Positions 39,016 to 59,320 of a stretch of DNA of 64,000 nt are shown here, piece by piece. Under the pieces are notes generated by a model. It was given only the letters and a program-made list of their open reading frames with translations, was not told the origin of the DNA and made no database searches. Each line of letters begins with the position of its first letter. The first letter of the stretch is position 1. Location of the stretch: contig JAGDZS010000007.1 of the NCBI GenBank assembly GCA_049115595.1, forward strand, positions 217,219 through 281,218. The letters run 5' to 3'. Position numbers and translations under genes: made by a program. The stretch is from Flavobacteriaceae bacterium. Lineage in GTDB: Bacteria > Bacteroidota > Bacteroidia > Flavobacteriales > Flavobacteriaceae.

Positions 39016-39080
39016 TCTCATTCCGACCAAGGAGGAGGAATTTTTTCATTTGAGATTCCTCGACTCAACTCGAAATGACA
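39016..39080. repeat. REP-type imperfect palindromic doublet
   Basis: Right arm GAGATTCCTCGACTCAACTCGAAATGACA; left arm shares TCATT.CGA..GAGGAAT with its reverse complement. Confidence 0.7.
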
Positions 39081-39452: not shown

Positions 39453-39606
39453 TTGATTGTTTTAAATGATTAATAAATTGTTTTACGACTCAAAGTTGAA
39501 GAATTGATTCAATGAGTTTTAAAGAAATGGAATGAGGGCTTTACTTTTTGTCATGAAAATGAGAATATGAGGTATATGATAAAAATTAAGCCTTTTTAAT
39601 TTCAAG

Positions 39607-39631
39607 TTTCTCGACTCAGTTCGAAATGACA
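39607..39631. repeat. REP-type half element
   Basis: TTTCTCGACTCAGTTCGAAATGACA, 22/25 identical to 39056-39080, same orientation. Confidence 0.75.
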
Positions 39632-43923: not shown

Positions 43924-44340
43924 TTACTTGGCAAACAATTGCTCCATATCTTTAAATGACTTAAACTCTAAAGCGTTTCCTTCAGGGTCGTTAAAGAACA
44001 TGGTGGCTTGCTCTCCAGTTTTCCCTTCAAAGCGAACTGTAGGTGCTATGATAAACTCTGTGTTGTTTTCTTTTAATCGTTCTGCCAACTGATTCCAGGT
44101 TTCTCTAGTAAGAACAACTCCAAAATGAGGCACAGGAACATCATGACCATCTACAGGATTGGAAATTCGCTGAGGTAGAAAATCTTCTTTTTGGTGAATG
44201 ACCAATTGATGTCCGAAGAAATTAAAATCAACCCAATGATCAGAACTACGTCCTTCTTTACATTGCAAAATATCTCTATAAAAAGCTCTGCATTTTTCTA
44301 AATCTTTTACAGGGATGGCTAAGTGGAAAGGCTGTATCAT
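43924..44340 (-). CDS. VOC/glyoxalase family protein
   Basis: [40 protein letters not shown]. Confidence 0.92.
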
Positions 44341-44399
44341 TGTTAGTTGTTAGTTGTTAGTTGTTAGTTGTTAGTTGTTAGTTGTTAGTTGTTAGTTGT
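44341..44399 (+). repeat. heptamer tandem repeat (TGTTAGT)x8 + TGT
   Basis: Eight perfect copies counted, abutting the start codon of the VOC gene. Confidence 0.98.
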
Positions 44400-44481
44400 G
44401 ACTTCGAGAGCATTTCAACAAGTTCAATGAGACACCTCAGTCACCTTTTTTATGTTGGTCATTGAGGCTCTCGAAATGACA
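44398..44481. repeat. REP-type palindromic doublet with a nested 23-bp insertion in the left arm
   Basis: GTGACTTCGAGAGC[ATTTCAACAAGTTCAATGAGACA]CCTCAGTCACC versus right arm GGTCATTGAGGCTCTCGAAATGAC. Confidence 0.7.
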
Positions 44482-55603: not shown

Positions 55604-58600
55604 TTAACTTTTTTTTGCTTCAACCCATTTTCTGGCATTTACAAATGCTTCCAACCATGGAGAAACTTCGTCTTTTCTACCAGCTGGATAGTTTGCCCAG
55701 TTCCATTGGAATGTAGAGCGTTCTATATGTGGCATGGTTGCTAAATGACGTCCTGTTTTGTCACACATCATAGCTGTGTTAAAATCAGAGCCATTTGGAT
55801 TGTGAGGATATCCTTCATAACTATACTTAGCAACAATATCATATTTATCTTCAGAATAAGGAAGATCAAATTTTCCTTCACCATGAGAAATCCAAACTCC
55901 CAGCGTTGTTCCGGCTAGACTAGATAACATCACGGAATTGTTCTCTTGTATCTTTACTGAGGTAAAAGAACTTTCGTGTTTCCCAGAATCGTTGTAAGTC
56001 ATTTTTCCATGTACTTCATGATCTGGATTCATTAAATCCAATTCCATCCATAACTGACATCCGTTACAAATTCCAACACTTAGTGTGTCTTCTCTATCGA
56101 AAAATGATTTTAATACCTTATTAGCCTTCTCATTGTATAAAAAGGCACCAGCCCAACCTTTTGCAGAACCCAGTACATCTGAATTTGAGAATCCACCTAC
56201 AGCTCCAATGAACTGAATATCGTCTAAGGTTTCACGACCAGAAATTAAATCGGTCATGTGAACGTCTTTTACATCAAATCCAGCTAAGTACATGGCATTT
56301 GCCATTTCACGTTCAGAATTACTTCCTTTTTCACGTAGAATGGCTGCTTTTGGTTTAACTCTTGTCTCCTCGAGCGCAGTCGAGAGGTTGTCAAGAGGTC
56401 TCGACTGCGCTCGACCTGACAACGTATCAGACAATCTTCCTGTAAAACCTTCAGGAAATGTATACTGTAAAGGTTGATTCTTATAATTGTCAAAACGATC
56501 TTTAGCCAAGCCATTGGCTGTTTGTTTTTGATCGAGTAGGTAAGAGGTCTTATACCAAGTGTCTCTTAATTCTGAAACTGATAATGAATAGTTGGTCTTG
56601 TGATTCTGAATATTTAATGTATCACTCTCCGCAACCGTTCCTATTTTAATAGCATCAATTCCGTTGCTTGCAAATGTATTTTCAATAGAACTGTCTTTCG
56701 CTTGAATTACAATTCCTGCATTTTCAGCAAACAACATCTTAAGAGTGTCTTCCTCATTCAATCCTGATAGATCTAAGTTAGCGCCGGTATTTACATCCGC
56801 AAAACATAATTCTAATAAGGTAGTAATCAACCCTCCAGAAGCAACATCATGCCCTGCAAGAATTTGACCTTCTTTAATGAGGTCTTGAATTGTATTGAAA
56901 ACATTTTTTACATATCCAGCATCTTTTACTGTAGGAGTGTCATTTCCAATTTTATTAACTATTTGAGCAAAAGAACTACCACCTAATTTAAAATCGTCTT
57001 GAGAAATATTGATATAGTAAATGTCGCCACCGTCTTTCTGTAAAACAGGTTCTACAACTTTCATAATATCATTACAGTTAGCAGCTGCTGAAATGATAAC
57101 GGTACCTGGAGAAATTACTTCTTCATTTGGATACTTCTGTTTCATTGACAAGGAATCCTTTCCAGTAGGAACATTGATTCCCAAGTCAATTGAGAATTCT
57201 GAAATTGCTTTTACAGCTTTGTACAAGCGGGCATCTTCTCCTTCATTTTTACATGGCCACATCCAGTTAGCTGAGAGCGATACGCTCTTTAAACCTTCTT
57301 TAAGTGGTGCGAAAACAATATTAGTAAGAGCTTCAGTAATTGCGTTTCTACTTCCTGCTTCTGGATTGATTAATCCAGAAATAGGAGCGTGCCCAATAGA
57401 AGTAGCAATCCCTTCTTGTCCTTTATAGTCTAGTGCCATTACACCTACATTGTTTAAAGGAATTTGTAATTGACCAACACACTGTTGTTTTGCTACTTTT
57501 CCACCAACACAACGATCTACTTTGTTTGTTAACCAATCTTTACATGCTACAGCTTCTAATTGTAATACTTGCGACAAGTAGTTTGAAAATTCATCAGAAT
57601 TATAAGAAACCTTTTCATAATTTCTGTTAACAGTTACGTCGTTCATAATGGTTTTAGGAGAAGAACCAAACATATCTTCTAAAGCCAAATCCATTGGTTT
57701 GTTTCCATTGGTTGCTGATTCAAACGTAAAACGATCATCACCAGTTACATCACCTACTTGGTACATTGGAGAACGTTCTCTTTCTGCAATCTTTTGCAAG
57801 GTGTCTATATGTTTTTCGGCAATGACTAATCCCATTCTTTCTTGAGATTCATTTCCGATAATTTCTTTGTTTGATAGTGTTGGGTCTCCAACAGGAAGCT
57901 GATCTAAATCAATCTTACCACCTGTATCTTCAACCAATTCTGATAAACAATTTAAATGTCCACCTGCACCGTGATCATGAATGGAAACAATAAAGTTATC
58001 TTCACTTTCTACCATTCCACGAACTGCATTTGCAGCACGTTTTTGCATTTCAGGATTAGAACGTTGAACAGCATTCAATTCAATTCCAGAAGAGAATTCA
58101 CCTGTGTCTGCAGAAGAAACTGCAGCCCCACCCATTCCAATTCTATAATTATCACCTCCAAGGATAACAATCTTGTCACCTTCTTTTGGAGTATCTTTCA
58201 ATGCTTGATCTTGTTTTCCATAACCAATTCCACCAGCTTGCATAATCACTTTATCGAAACCAAGTTTTCGAGCATCTTCTTCATGTTCAAAAGTAAGCAC
58301 GGAACCAACAATTAAAGGTTGACCGAATTTATTCCCAAAATCTGAAGCTCCATTAGAAGCTTTGATTAGAATGTCCATTGGAGTTTGGTACAACCACTTG
58401 CGCTCTTCAATATTCTCCCAAGGTCTGTTTTCTTCCAAACGTGAATAGGAGGTCATATATACAGCAGTTCCAGCCAATGGCAACGAACCTTTTCCTCCAG
58501 CTAAACGATCTCTAATTTCACCTCCGGAACCTGTAGCAGCACCGTTAAAAGGTTCTACAGTAGTAGGGAAATTGTGAGTTTCTGCTTTGATAGAAATCAC

Positions 58601-59320
58601 AGAATCAAAATCTTCTGTTTGATAGTAATCTGGTACATCAGCTCTTTTCGGAGCGAATTGTTCAACTTTAGGGCCTTTAATAAAAGCAACATTGTCTTTG
58701 TACGCAGAAACAATGTCATTAGGATTTTGTTTCGATGTTTCTTTAATCATCTTAAATAAAGAAGTTGATTGTTCTTCTCCATCTATGACAAAAGTTCCAT
58801 TGAATATTTTGTGTCTACAGTGTTCTGAATTTACTTGAGAAAAACCAAATACTTCAGAATCTGTTAGCTTTCGACCAATCTTAGTCGATAGATTATTTAA
58901 ATAATCAACTTCCTCATCATTTAAAGCCAATCCTTCTTGAGCATTATAAGAAGCAATATCATCGATTTCTAAAATAGCTTCCGGTTGAATGTCAATAGTA
59001 AATGTGCTTTGATGCAATCCGTCAAACTTTTGTAAGATCATTGGATCATATTCTGAAAAATCTTTAGAGACAGCTTCAAACTCCTCAATTCTTAAGATTC
59101 CTGTAATACCCATATTCTGAGTAATCTCAACAGCATTGGTACTCCAAGGAGTAATCATCGCTGCTCTAGGGCCAATAAAAAAGGCGTCAAGAGACGCCGA
59201 GTTAAGTTGAGTTTGGTTGCCAAAAAGCCAAGTTAATTTCGAGATGTTTTCAGCTGTTAATTCTTCTGTTGTTTGAACAGCAAATACTTTACTGTTTACG
59301 TTTCCAAAGAAATTGATCAT
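55604..59320 (-). CDS. purL: phosphoribosylformylglycinamidine synthase (large type)
   Basis: NSEHCRHK, KAETHNFPT, GAATGSGGEIRD, HDHGAGG, glutaminase GICNGCQ, MPHIER. Confidence 0.98.
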   Translation of the reverse strand: MINFFGNVNSKVFAVQTTEELTAENISKLTWLFGNQTQLNSASLDAFFIGPRAAMITPWSTNAVEITQNMGITGILRIEEFEAVSKDFSEYDPMILQKFDGLHQSTFTIDIQPEAILEIDDIASYNAQEGLALNDEEVDYLNNLSTKIGRKLTDSEVFGFSQVNSEHCRHKIFNGTFVIDGEEQSTSLFKMIKETSKQNPNDIVSAYKDNVAFIKGPKVEQFAPKRADVPDYYQTEDFDSVISIKAETHNFPTTVEPFNGAATGSGGEIRDRLAGGKGSLPLAGTAVYMTSYSRLEENRPWENIEERKWLYQTPMDILIKASNGASDFGNKFGQPLIVGSVLTFEHEEDARKLGFDKVIMQAGGIGYGKQDQALKDTPKEGDKIVILGGDNYRIGMGGAAVSSADTGEFSSGIELNAVQRSNPEMQKRAANAVRGMVESEDNFIVSIHDHGAGGHLNCLSELVEDTGGKIDLDQLPVGDPTLSNKEIIGNESQERMGLVIAEKHIDTLQKIAERERSPMYQVGDVTGDDRFTFESATNGNKPMDLALEDMFGSSPKTIMNDVTVNRNYEKVSYNSDEFSNYLSQVLQLEAVACKDWLTNKVDRCVGGKVAKQQCVGQLQIPLNNVGVMALDYKGQEGIATSIGHAPISGLINPEAGSRNAITEALTNIVFAPLKEGLKSVSLSANWMWPCKNEGEDARLYKAVKAISEFSIDLGINVPTGKDSLSMKQKYPNEEVISPGTVIISAAANCNDIMKVVEPVLQKDGGDIYYINISQDDFKLGGSSFAQIVNKIGNDTPTVKDAGYVKNVFNTIQDLIKEGQILAGHDVASGGLITTLLELCFADVNTGANLDLSGLNEEDTLKMLFAENAGIVIQAKDSSIENTFASNGIDAIKIGTVAESDTLNIQNHKTNYSLSVSELRDTWYKTSYLLDQKQTANGLAKDRFDNYKNQPLQYTFPEGFTGRLSDTLSGRAQSRPLDNLSTALEETRVKPKAAILREKGSNSEREMANAMYLAGFDVKDVHMTDLISGRETLDDIQFIGAVGGFSNSDVLGSAKGWAGAFLYNEKANKVLKSFFDREDTLSVGICNGCQLWMELDLMNPDHEVHGKMTYNDSGKHESSFTSVKIQENNSVMLSSLAGTTLGVWISHGEGKFDLPYSEDKYDIVAKYSYEGYPHNPNGSDFNTAMMCDKTGRHLATMPHIERSTFQWNWANYPAGRKDEVSPWLEAFVNARKWVEAKKS
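56362..56422. mobile_element. REP-type palindromic element inserted in frame within purL
   Basis: Perfect 16-bp inverted repeat TCGAGCGCAGTCGAGA (56370-56385) / TCTCGACTGCGCTCGA (56399-56414) with outer TTGTC/GACAA ends. Confidence 0.9.

Follow-up and report, generated by a model that had tools for sequence, protein, structure and literature searches.

A TGTC-tagged hairpin dimer in frame within the interdomain hinge of PurL in a Polaribacter genome

We analysed a window of 64,000 nucleotides (nt) from a Flavobacteriaceae bacterium (assembly GCA_049115595.1, contig JAGDZS010000007.1, positions 217,219 to 281,218), in which purL, the gene for the large-type formylglycinamidine ribonucleotide (FGAM) synthase, carries a 63-nt pair of inverted hairpin units within its reading frame. 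The genome, hereafter G000, probably belongs to Polaribacter, measures 3.86 Mb at 33% G+C and is 98.4% complete. With a probability that we put at roughly 85%, the element is a non-autonomous TGTC-tagged dimer of the CGTC/TGTC superfamily of repetitive extragenic palindromic (REP) sequences, with motifs related to those of the Ssn nucleases, which landed or was renewed in the hinge of PurL and is translated there as a tolerated by-product. On the same reading, units of this sort would have landed repeatedly in the PurL hinge of Flavobacteriaceae and been retained there.

The in-frame palindrome of purL

The first-pass annotation of this DNA, made from its letters alone, had described a palindromic repeat lying in frame in purL and adding a peptide of about 20 residues. 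That description is borne out, and the encoded stretch can be given exactly: the dimer reads as L967-R987 (LSGRAQSRPLDNLSTALEETR), 21 amino acids (aa) that keep the frame of the single 1238-aa open reading frame (ORF), in the context ...FTGRLSDT-LSGRAQSRPLDNLSTALEETR-VKPKAAILRE. The two arms of the palindrome (56362-56385 and 56399-56422) are 24 nt long and 88% complementary, have TTGTC/GACAA ends, and enclose a perfect 16-nt core pair, TCGAGCGCAGTCGAGA and TCTCGACTGCGCTCGA. Within the window, the 13-mer CGAGCGCAGTCGA is confined to these two arms, for a chance expectation of 0.19. On the coding strand, the block reads TTGTC-AGG-core-CCT / CTTGACA / AGG-core'-GGA-GACAA-GA, that is, 63 nt or 21 codons, all of them stop-free. 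As a single strand, the 76-nt region around it is predicted to fold with -36.8 kcal/mol as RNA (z = -5.2) and -22.6 kcal/mol as DNA (z = -5.3). The coordinates are collected in Table 1.

Table 1. Hairpin elements of the window and the gene that hosts the translated dimer
Feature	Position in window	Strand	Basis or remark
purL, large-type FGAM synthase, host gene	55604..59320	-	ORF and translation; 1238 aa; largest ORF of the window
63-nt tag-outside ('HH') dimer of two TGTC-tagged hairpin units	56360..56422	.	limits set by the block 63/63 identical in Flavivirga amylovorans and G246, with diverging flanks
purL unit 1, TTGTC-TCC-TCGAGCGCAGTCGAGA-GGT (tag, variable pair, core, complementary pair)	56362..56388	+	sequence
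purL dimer spacer TGTCAAG (coding strand CTTGACA), 7 nt	56389..56395	.	without stop in the purL frame
purL unit 2, minus-strand reading TTGTC-AGG-TCGAGCGCAGTCGAGA-CCT	56396..56422	-	sequence
Intergenic dimer of sister subfamilies, CTCATTCCGACCAAGGAGGAGGAAT ... GATTCCTCGACTCAACTCGAAATGACA	39017..39079	.	sequence comparison
Solo intergenic unit, TGTCATTTCGAACTGAGTCGAGAAAC	39605..39630	-	sequence comparison
Composite intergenic element, GTGACTTCGAGAGC ... CCTCAGTCACC ... GGCTCTCGAAATGAC	44398..44480	.	sequence comparison

The host protein shows the Pfam domains FGAR-AT_N, FGAR-AT linker, AIRS_C, PurM_N-like and GATase_5 (residues 989-1233) and shares 78-84% identity with same-genus orthologues. 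The insert ends at R987, two residues ahead of GATase_5. We aligned the hinge with that of 27 orthologues, 22 from the same genus and five from other families of the order. Between ...FP..FTGKL and (R/K)PKAAI(I/L)RE, the orthologues mostly have 9-12 residues and G000 has 28, so that palindrome-free proteins show a gap of ~17-20 aa exactly at FTG(K/R)L...|...(R/K)PKAA, the place predicted beforehand as FTGRL/RVKPK. The same short-hinge pattern was found in 80 further Flavobacteriaceae loci, where the commonest hinges are KLPxI(D/N)xxKP(R/K) (11 aa) and KLPxxGxxR (9 aa).

Structural data agree on the location. When aligned to solved PurL structures (1T3T, 9N9W and others), the sequence matches again from the last few insert residues onward (query positions 114-116 of 228, the insert ending at 118). 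In an AlphaFold model of residues 640-1238, the insert is the sole long low-confidence stretch nearby (model residues 325-347), with a predicted local distance difference test score (pLDDT) below 50. The model suggests a flexible or disordered linker, and the earlier proposal of an insert at a tolerated linker ahead of the glutaminase domain is thus well supported. The insert is probably translated, as the sequence is stop-free, contains no restart signal and has conserved domains on either side; its predicted tryptic peptide is AQSRPLDNLSTALEETR. As judged from sequence, it is presumably a neutral passenger.

A dispersed repeat family and its GIY-YIG partner

The 16-mer TCGAGCGCAGTCGAGA occurs in 44 exact copies in G000, or 55 when one mismatch is allowed, and the core 12-mers are the most over-represented non-trivial (complex) 12-mers of the genome. 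Clustering of the units yields ~50 loci, mostly intergenic; a genome-wide count of copies inside versus outside coding sequences had been proposed beforehand. Tag-outside dimers ('+-', spacers of 7-45 nt) number 23 and tag-inside dimers ('-+') only one (C3:117,103); the rest are solo units. The unit consensus is (A/T)TGTC - W - NN - TCGAGCGCAGTCGAGA - N'N' - T, with an imperfectly palindromic core, an A/T after the tag and no CCA tail. The TGTC tag stands immediately 5' of the stem, as (A/T/G)TGTC, in 51 of the 55 units.

Several observations indicate that the unit is maintained as a structure. The NN and N'N' bases flanking the core, for which at least six pair types are in use, are complementary in 98% and 93% of units, compared with 28% and 40% in shuffled partners, and a recurrent variant, TTGAGCGCAGTCGAAA, has changed both partners of the next inward pair (C2/G15 to T2/A15) in a compensatory manner. 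This covariation, together with the compensatory variant, implies that each unit has a maintained stem, despite the weak predicted fold of single units. Because of that weak fold, a ViennaRNA scan for units as TGTC plus a stable DNA hairpin gave no enrichment over control tags. An Rfam covariance-model scan of window positions 38000-60000 returned no relevant match at E <= 1.

A partner gene, either a RAYT or a GIY-YIG gene, had been suggested as something to look for, and a GIY-YIG gene was found bracketed by this exact subfamily. It encodes 115 aa (C4:412,528-412,872; PF01541, Pfam E = 6e-19) and lies between two units of the purL subfamily in a cassette of unit, gene and inverted unit (C4:412,505-412,866), in which the left and right units are arranged as in the dimers; the 5' flanking unit at C4:412,505 is of the same type as purL unit 1. 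The RAYT/Y1 transposase domain (PF01797) is absent from G000, while control genomes gave matches. The right-hand unit (412,851-412,875) also encodes the last nine residues of the GIY-YIG protein (EVSTALDQT) and its TAG stop, and the Flavivirga orthologue ends just ahead of its right-hand unit.

The pairing extends to other genera. Units of the purL type (family A) bracket the orthologous gene in Flavivirga amylovorans, Flavobacteriaceae bacterium NBU2973 and Flagellimonas crocea, and stand beside it in Kordia. Between G000 and Flavivirga, about a fifth of the residues of the nuclease differ, as counted by eye, which is similar to housekeeping proteins, and the unit core is identical. A diverged nuclease next to an identical core suggests that the pairing is old and that the core has been held constant, presumably by recognition.

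G000 contains seven small GIY-YIG genes, most of which are flanked, on one side or both, by a hairpin type of their own. For instance, contig C49 (383 nt in total) consists of one such gene between near-canonical Neisseria-type motifs, GTCATTCCCGAGAAATCGGGAATCCAG, which almost match the NTS consensus; its product and the C4 nuclease share 41% identity (E = 3e-15). The assembly breaks within the C49 repeats, and four other copies of the GTCATTCCCGAGAAATCGGGAATCCAG motif are present in the assembly. Another of these genes, at C6:248,060-248,269, lies directly downstream of a tRNA-like sequence, followed by what appears by eye to be a repeat of the 3' end of that sequence (TTCGAATCTTCTCGTGCG). 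An NCBIfam search of the GIY-YIG proteins gave no informative match, and none at all for the C4 nuclease. Each small GIY-YIG paralogue with its own repeat type, in a pairing kept across genera, is a pattern that our findings document for Flavobacteriaceae, a family that holds abundant Ssn-type repeat variants escaping the published search pattern.

The PurL hinge as a hot spot across Flavobacteriaceae

We read by eye the hinge DNA of ~100 distinct Flavobacteriaceae purL orthologues, a survey that is not a statistical call. A recognisable unit or dimer occupies the hinge in ~29 of the ~100, representing at least ten unit types in both orientations at the same ~30-nt site. Single family-A units with a perfect core and other NN pairs are present in Flagellimonas, Kordia and a Polaribacter metagenome-assembled genome. 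A second dimer family, GACGTCATTGCGAACACAGTGAAGCAATC...CTCGCAATGAC, which is dispersed at low copy number, fills the hinges of Hyunsoonleella, Algibacter, Lacinutrix, Maribacter and two Polaribacter species, a third dimer type is found in G009, and reversed units occur in Winogradskyella, Jejuia and Flagellimonas. In genome G430 (locus L145), further different units are nested in both arms of the dimer (LSGRARHTERSRDARPLDNLSTALRQAQCDTLEETRR), and the frame is still open.

Only one unit was seen at another PurL site, a solo family-A unit (TNDLSTALEVTK) at residues ~345-360 of locus L021 (genome G020), in the loop between FEY and RKLGFDKV. The DNA of a Ser-rich loop (ENSSSSEAKP) and of the SIDSVKN loop of Polaribacter PurL is not recognisably unit-derived.

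Side observations were made on other hinges. Those of two Flavivirga genomes (L170 in G458 and L171 in G462), KLPAALGKRREGA and KLPFPFGEGRDGA, derive from a different GC-rich palindrome (CCCCTTCCCCTTTGGGGAAGG...), which may be yet another hairpin family at this site. The common hinge KLPVI... is coded CTN CCA GTC ATT (for example in L062, L092, L012 and L100) and contains a CGTC-type tag and stem start (AGTCATT), and the L092 hinge (KLPVIASGTKQSR) resembles a single unit of the second family. Some of the apparently empty hinges may therefore be remnants of old units.

To the survey we added a search of 401 sampled Flavobacteriaceae genomes from 302 genera for the purL junction, a 27-mer that includes the spacer, at up to three mismatches. 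The dimer with the purL spacer was present in six of them, G000 included, and always in the purL hinge. Dimers with the same arms outside purL have other spacers, several of which are also stop-free in the purL frame. Among the purL carriers, the spacer varies little. In G000, F. amylovorans and G246, which represent three genera, the dimer is identical at 63 of 63 nt. The 450 nt on each side share 64-67% identity upstream and 77-79% downstream, and the match breaks off at the limits of the element. In a PurL phylogeny from which the hinge was excluded, the carriers occupy four separate positions. It should be noted that 52 of the 63 nt belong to the consensus of the family, which is itself conserved from genus to genus.

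Two candidate causes of the shared insert were considered and rejected: a recombination patch, since identity is not raised beside the element, and horizontal transfer of the whole purL gene, since the carriers are scattered on the PurL tree.

Age and turnover of the purL copies

The intact dimer is found in G000 alone among ~25 Polaribacter species and in one of 12 Flavivirga species. In the closest relative, G004, this position holds only a decayed copy of unit 2 (TTGTCAGGTGAAGCACAGTCAAGACCT), in which the NN pair is the same, and no exact core occurs anywhere in that genome. The Flavivirga genomes display a range of states: a perfect dimer in one (F. amylovorans), derivatives of that dimer, decayed or with internal deletions, in three (G456, G455 and G454), another unit type in two, another GC-rich hairpin in two and a 9-aa hinge in four. 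The three derivatives fall in three sublineages, and G454, G457 and G452, whose flanks are 90-93% identical, show three different hinge states. In filled hinges, the native residues have been replaced and not merely split.

The decayed copies in sister species show that the insertions are older than a single species. Turnover at the hinge is fast and copies decay, yet a few lineages keep a copy identical to the consensus. Upkeep of the purL copy through gene conversion by an active family was considered and is not supported: G454 and G455 have decayed copies despite 27-28 exact cores genome-wide, and G004 has neither exact cores nor an intact purL copy.

Possible origins of the insert

Under the reading that we favour, the C4 cassette would be the autonomous-looking form of the family in G000. 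By analogy with characterised Ssn enzymes, its nuclease may recognise the unit when it is folded in single-stranded DNA and make a nick a few bases beyond the tag, and, to judge from the Ssn literature, either this activity or host repair acting on the nick could spread or renew copies. One dimer would have landed in, or been renewed within, the hinge that joins the FGAM-synthetase domain to the glutaminase domain. It would persist because its 63 nt, or 21 codons, are stop-free in frame and lie in a disordered linker that is free in length and sequence. The peptide would be a by-product and not an adaptation.

Several points weigh against this account. No transposition mechanism is known for this repeat class, and around the ~25 dimers of G000 neither a target-site duplication nor a common flanking target motif is visible, only a variable A/T beside TGTC/GACA. 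A single unit folds weakly, at -2 to -3 kcal/mol, which is no better than shuffles, and its stem-loop geometry is unlike the 8-9 bp stem and 4-5 nt loop of the CGTC REPs. The C4 nuclease is a candidate member of cd10448 (Ssn) whose nearest solved structures are the UPF0213 proteins 1ZG2 and 1YWL. The published SRM pattern, HGTCWYN(0-2)YYVSBRHN(0-5)WNVSBRGN(0-2)RNCYNB, has six matches in G000, a number at the level expected by chance (0-5 in simulated genomes); none is of the purL subfamily and four of the six are canonical NTS-like units. This pattern is a search heuristic derived from 29 genomes and not a functional definition. The decay of the purL copies in G454 and G455, whose genomes remain rich in exact cores, points in the same direction. 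Lastly, random insertion and tolerance alone leave unexplained why an identical dimer with the same spacer sits in the same hinge in several genera.

The alternatives differ in how the dimer came to be in the hinge. It is possible, at somewhat short of even odds, that units insert anywhere or into older units, so that the hinge reflects a tolerance filter and survivorship, with remnants attracting new units. The many unit types found there in both orientations are what such a filter would leave, as are the units nested in both dimer arms of G430 and the strong depletion of the family in coding DNA. The PurL of Opitutus terrae (Oter_3711), from an unrelated phylum, also carries two REP dimers. 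What this explanation does not cover is the spacer, which is the same variant in all purL dimers, whereas outside purL other spacers are used, several of them stop-free.

Alternatively, the 63-nt dimer would be delivered specifically to the hinge, through targeted insertion or lateral replacement of the allele, with recent independent acquisitions. Such homing-like behaviour would fit the complete identity between diverged flanks in three genera, which stops at the element ends, the four separate positions of carriers on the hinge-free tree, and the confinement of all copies with the purL spacer to the purL hinge. It would also fit the rarity of the intact form in Flavivirga and Polaribacter, the three hinge states of Flavivirga genomes with nearly identical flanks, and the replacement of native hinge residues. 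We nevertheless consider it unlikely: the dimers of G000 share no flanking target motif, identity is not raised beyond the element as recombination would have left it, the decayed derivatives in G004 and in G456, G455 and G454 place the insertions before single species, and the consensus portion of the dimer is conserved across genera in any case.

A bolder version, which we regard as doubtful, holds that the dimer is a discrete site-seeking element whose entry or re-entry into the PurL hinge took place independently in at least seven or eight genera of Flavobacteriaceae, and that the hinge is continuously rewritten by Ssn-type hairpins, the 'empty' KLPVI... hinge (CCA GTC ATT) being perhaps their debris. 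If true, it would offer the first natural read-out of the movement of GIY-YIG-associated hairpins: how they choose a target, how they are gained and lost seamlessly, and how they replace the sequence already there. It would then also present a protein linker that mobile DNA has furnished with its sequence through a long stretch of evolution.

It appears improbable that one ancient insertion was passed down vertically, with selection on the peptide or on the hairpin as DNA or RNA keeping it unchanged, and was lost many times afterwards. Dozens of precise losses would be needed, each restoring a conserved 9-11 aa hinge, and the copies of G004, G456 and G455 decay at about the neutral rate. In addition, conservation extends to synonymous sites, which selection acting solely on the peptide cannot account for. 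The constraint on unit structure revealed by the compensatory variant TTGAGCGCAGTCGAAA, the little-varied spacer and the orthologous decayed copies in sister species speak for this scenario.

The chance is very slight that a classical REP or REPIN moved by a RAYT (HUH Y1), or a MITE (miniature inverted-repeat transposable element) with terminal inverted repeats and target-site duplication, is involved: the short hairpin units in inverted pairs, mostly intergenic, look similar, but the 98.4% complete genome has no PF01797 match, the tag is TGTC and not GTAG, no target-site duplication is visible, and the unit-bracketed gene is a GIY-YIG nuclease. The earlier proposal that a repeat family of Flavobacteriaceae creates peptide inserts at tolerated linkers is supported.

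The PurL hinge acts as a natural 'trap', in which gain, loss, nesting and decay can be read against a conserved frame in hundreds of genomes. Hinge comparison opens the question of SRM spread to comparative genomics and to a simple target-plasmid assay.

Other copies in the genome and in the window

Units lying in frame, either of this family or of closely related sister types, were found in at least seven other G000 proteins, namely an E1 dehydrogenase, an IcmF-like mutase, topoisomerase III, MobA-like and MoeB-like proteins, the N-terminal part of Ogt and the C-terminal tail of an Nqr/Rnf-like subunit. The copy in the E1 dehydrogenase is a tag-inside dimer (DNLSTALKETIGVSSSAVENS) that adds 15-17 aa when the protein is compared with four orthologues. 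This fused E1 (alpha/beta) dehydrogenase (C3:115,480-117,603) has orthologues in four other families and none in the 15 other Polaribacter genomes searched, and may be a horizontal acquisition.

Bacterial genomes are mostly coding. The ~8 of 50 family loci that lie inside genes are far below the expectation for such a genome, which fits selection purging most coding insertions. For annotation, inserts of this kind explain odd low-complexity loops of 15-30 aa and false N-terminal extensions in Bacteroidota proteins.

The window also contains intergenic relatives of the purL element. Those named by the first-pass annotation at 39016, 39607 and 44398 proved to be real units of sister subfamilies with other cores, an example being TGTCATTTCGAGTTGAGTCGAGGAATC. 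The composite element at 44398 is built of the unit type that brackets the GIY-YIG gene at C6:82,485-82,703. At least eight tandem TTGTTAG heptamers (44340-44397) stand directly upstream of it.

Comparison with known systems

The phenomenon itself is not new, as both in-frame CGTC-type REP dimers and the association with GIY-YIG (Ssn) genes have been published. CGTC-tagged REPs were defined by Di Nocera, De Gregorio and Rocco (2013, BMC Genomics 14:522; PMC3733652), who counted Gramella forsetii, a member of Flavobacteriaceae, among the hosts. In their description, the tag is 'changed to TGTC' in many repeats, HH dimers predominate, tag-inside dimers are rare and no transposase or RAYT is associated; the unit has an 8-9 bp stem beginning with A/T, a 4-5 nt loop and a CCA-like tail. 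Intragenic singles and dimers in frame encode ~8-30 aa, with dimers accounting for 20-30 aa (PMC3733652). The same work lists purL of Opitutus terrae with two GTAG-type REP dimers. The purL family is alike in its terminal TGTC tag, the predominance of HH dimers, the lack of a RAYT and the presence of in-frame copies, and the dimer peptides of CGTC REPs end in ...RND/...GHD, like the second dimer family in PurL hinges. It is unlike them in its imperfect stem, its conserved 16-nt core and the absence of a CCA tail. The purL subfamily, its copies in PurL hinges and their recurrence across genera are not described in that paper.

Ssn proteins are small GIY-YIG proteins (cd10448) of ~90-115 aa whose genes are flanked by NTS/SRM hairpins (Chenal et al. 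2025, Nat Commun 16:2388; PMC11893778). They bind these hairpins in single-stranded DNA only, and their strand-specific cut falls a few nucleotides beyond the tag; the authors remarked on the repeat-gene-repeat architecture of the loci, which resembles that of insertion sequences (PMC11893778). Our system shares the order of repeat, small single-domain GIY-YIG gene and inverted repeat, the repeat variant particular to each paralogue, and the tens of dispersed copies; the C49 paralogue of G000 is even flanked by a near-canonical NTS-like motif. It differs in that the purL subfamily fails the published SRM pattern and that its putative cognate nuclease is only a candidate member of cd10448. The main text of the Ssn paper mentions neither Bacteroidota nor translated intragenic copies.

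Rickettsia palindromic elements (RPEs) are in-frame palindromic repeats in essential genes, tolerated as extra surface peptides at varied sites in many proteins, and in this respect they are alike. RPE-1, described by Ogata et al. in 2000, reportedly measures ~100-150 nt, resides in obligate intracellular alpha-proteobacteria and had no nuclease partner known when described. It is longer than the purL element and unrelated to it in sequence. The first-pass annotation had cited the RPEs as a parallel, which was apt as a known case and understated the relationship: since RPE-4 and RPE-6, together with Neisseria dRS3, have been placed in the CGTC superfamily (PMC3733652), the comparison is closer than an analogy. 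The REP/REPIN-RAYT systems (Nunvar 2010; Bertels & Rainey 2011) likewise combine inverted pairs of short hairpins with a bracketed, single-copy and domesticated-looking enzyme gene. They use a HUH Y1 enzyme and a GTAG tag, in contrast to the GIY-YIG gene and TGTC tag found here, and G000 has no RAYT.

Taken together, the studies of CGTC REPs (PMC3733652) and of Ssn (PMC11893778) account for the kind of finding reported here, and neither the former nor the main text of the latter describes this subfamily. What goes beyond published work is the hot spot in the PurL hinge and the fact that the dimer is identical in different genera. The purL case presents selfish hairpin DNA that would be translated inside an essential enzyme, and it links two literatures that do not cite each other here, one on intragenic CGTC REPs and RPEs and the other on the Ssn nucleases and their SRM hairpins.

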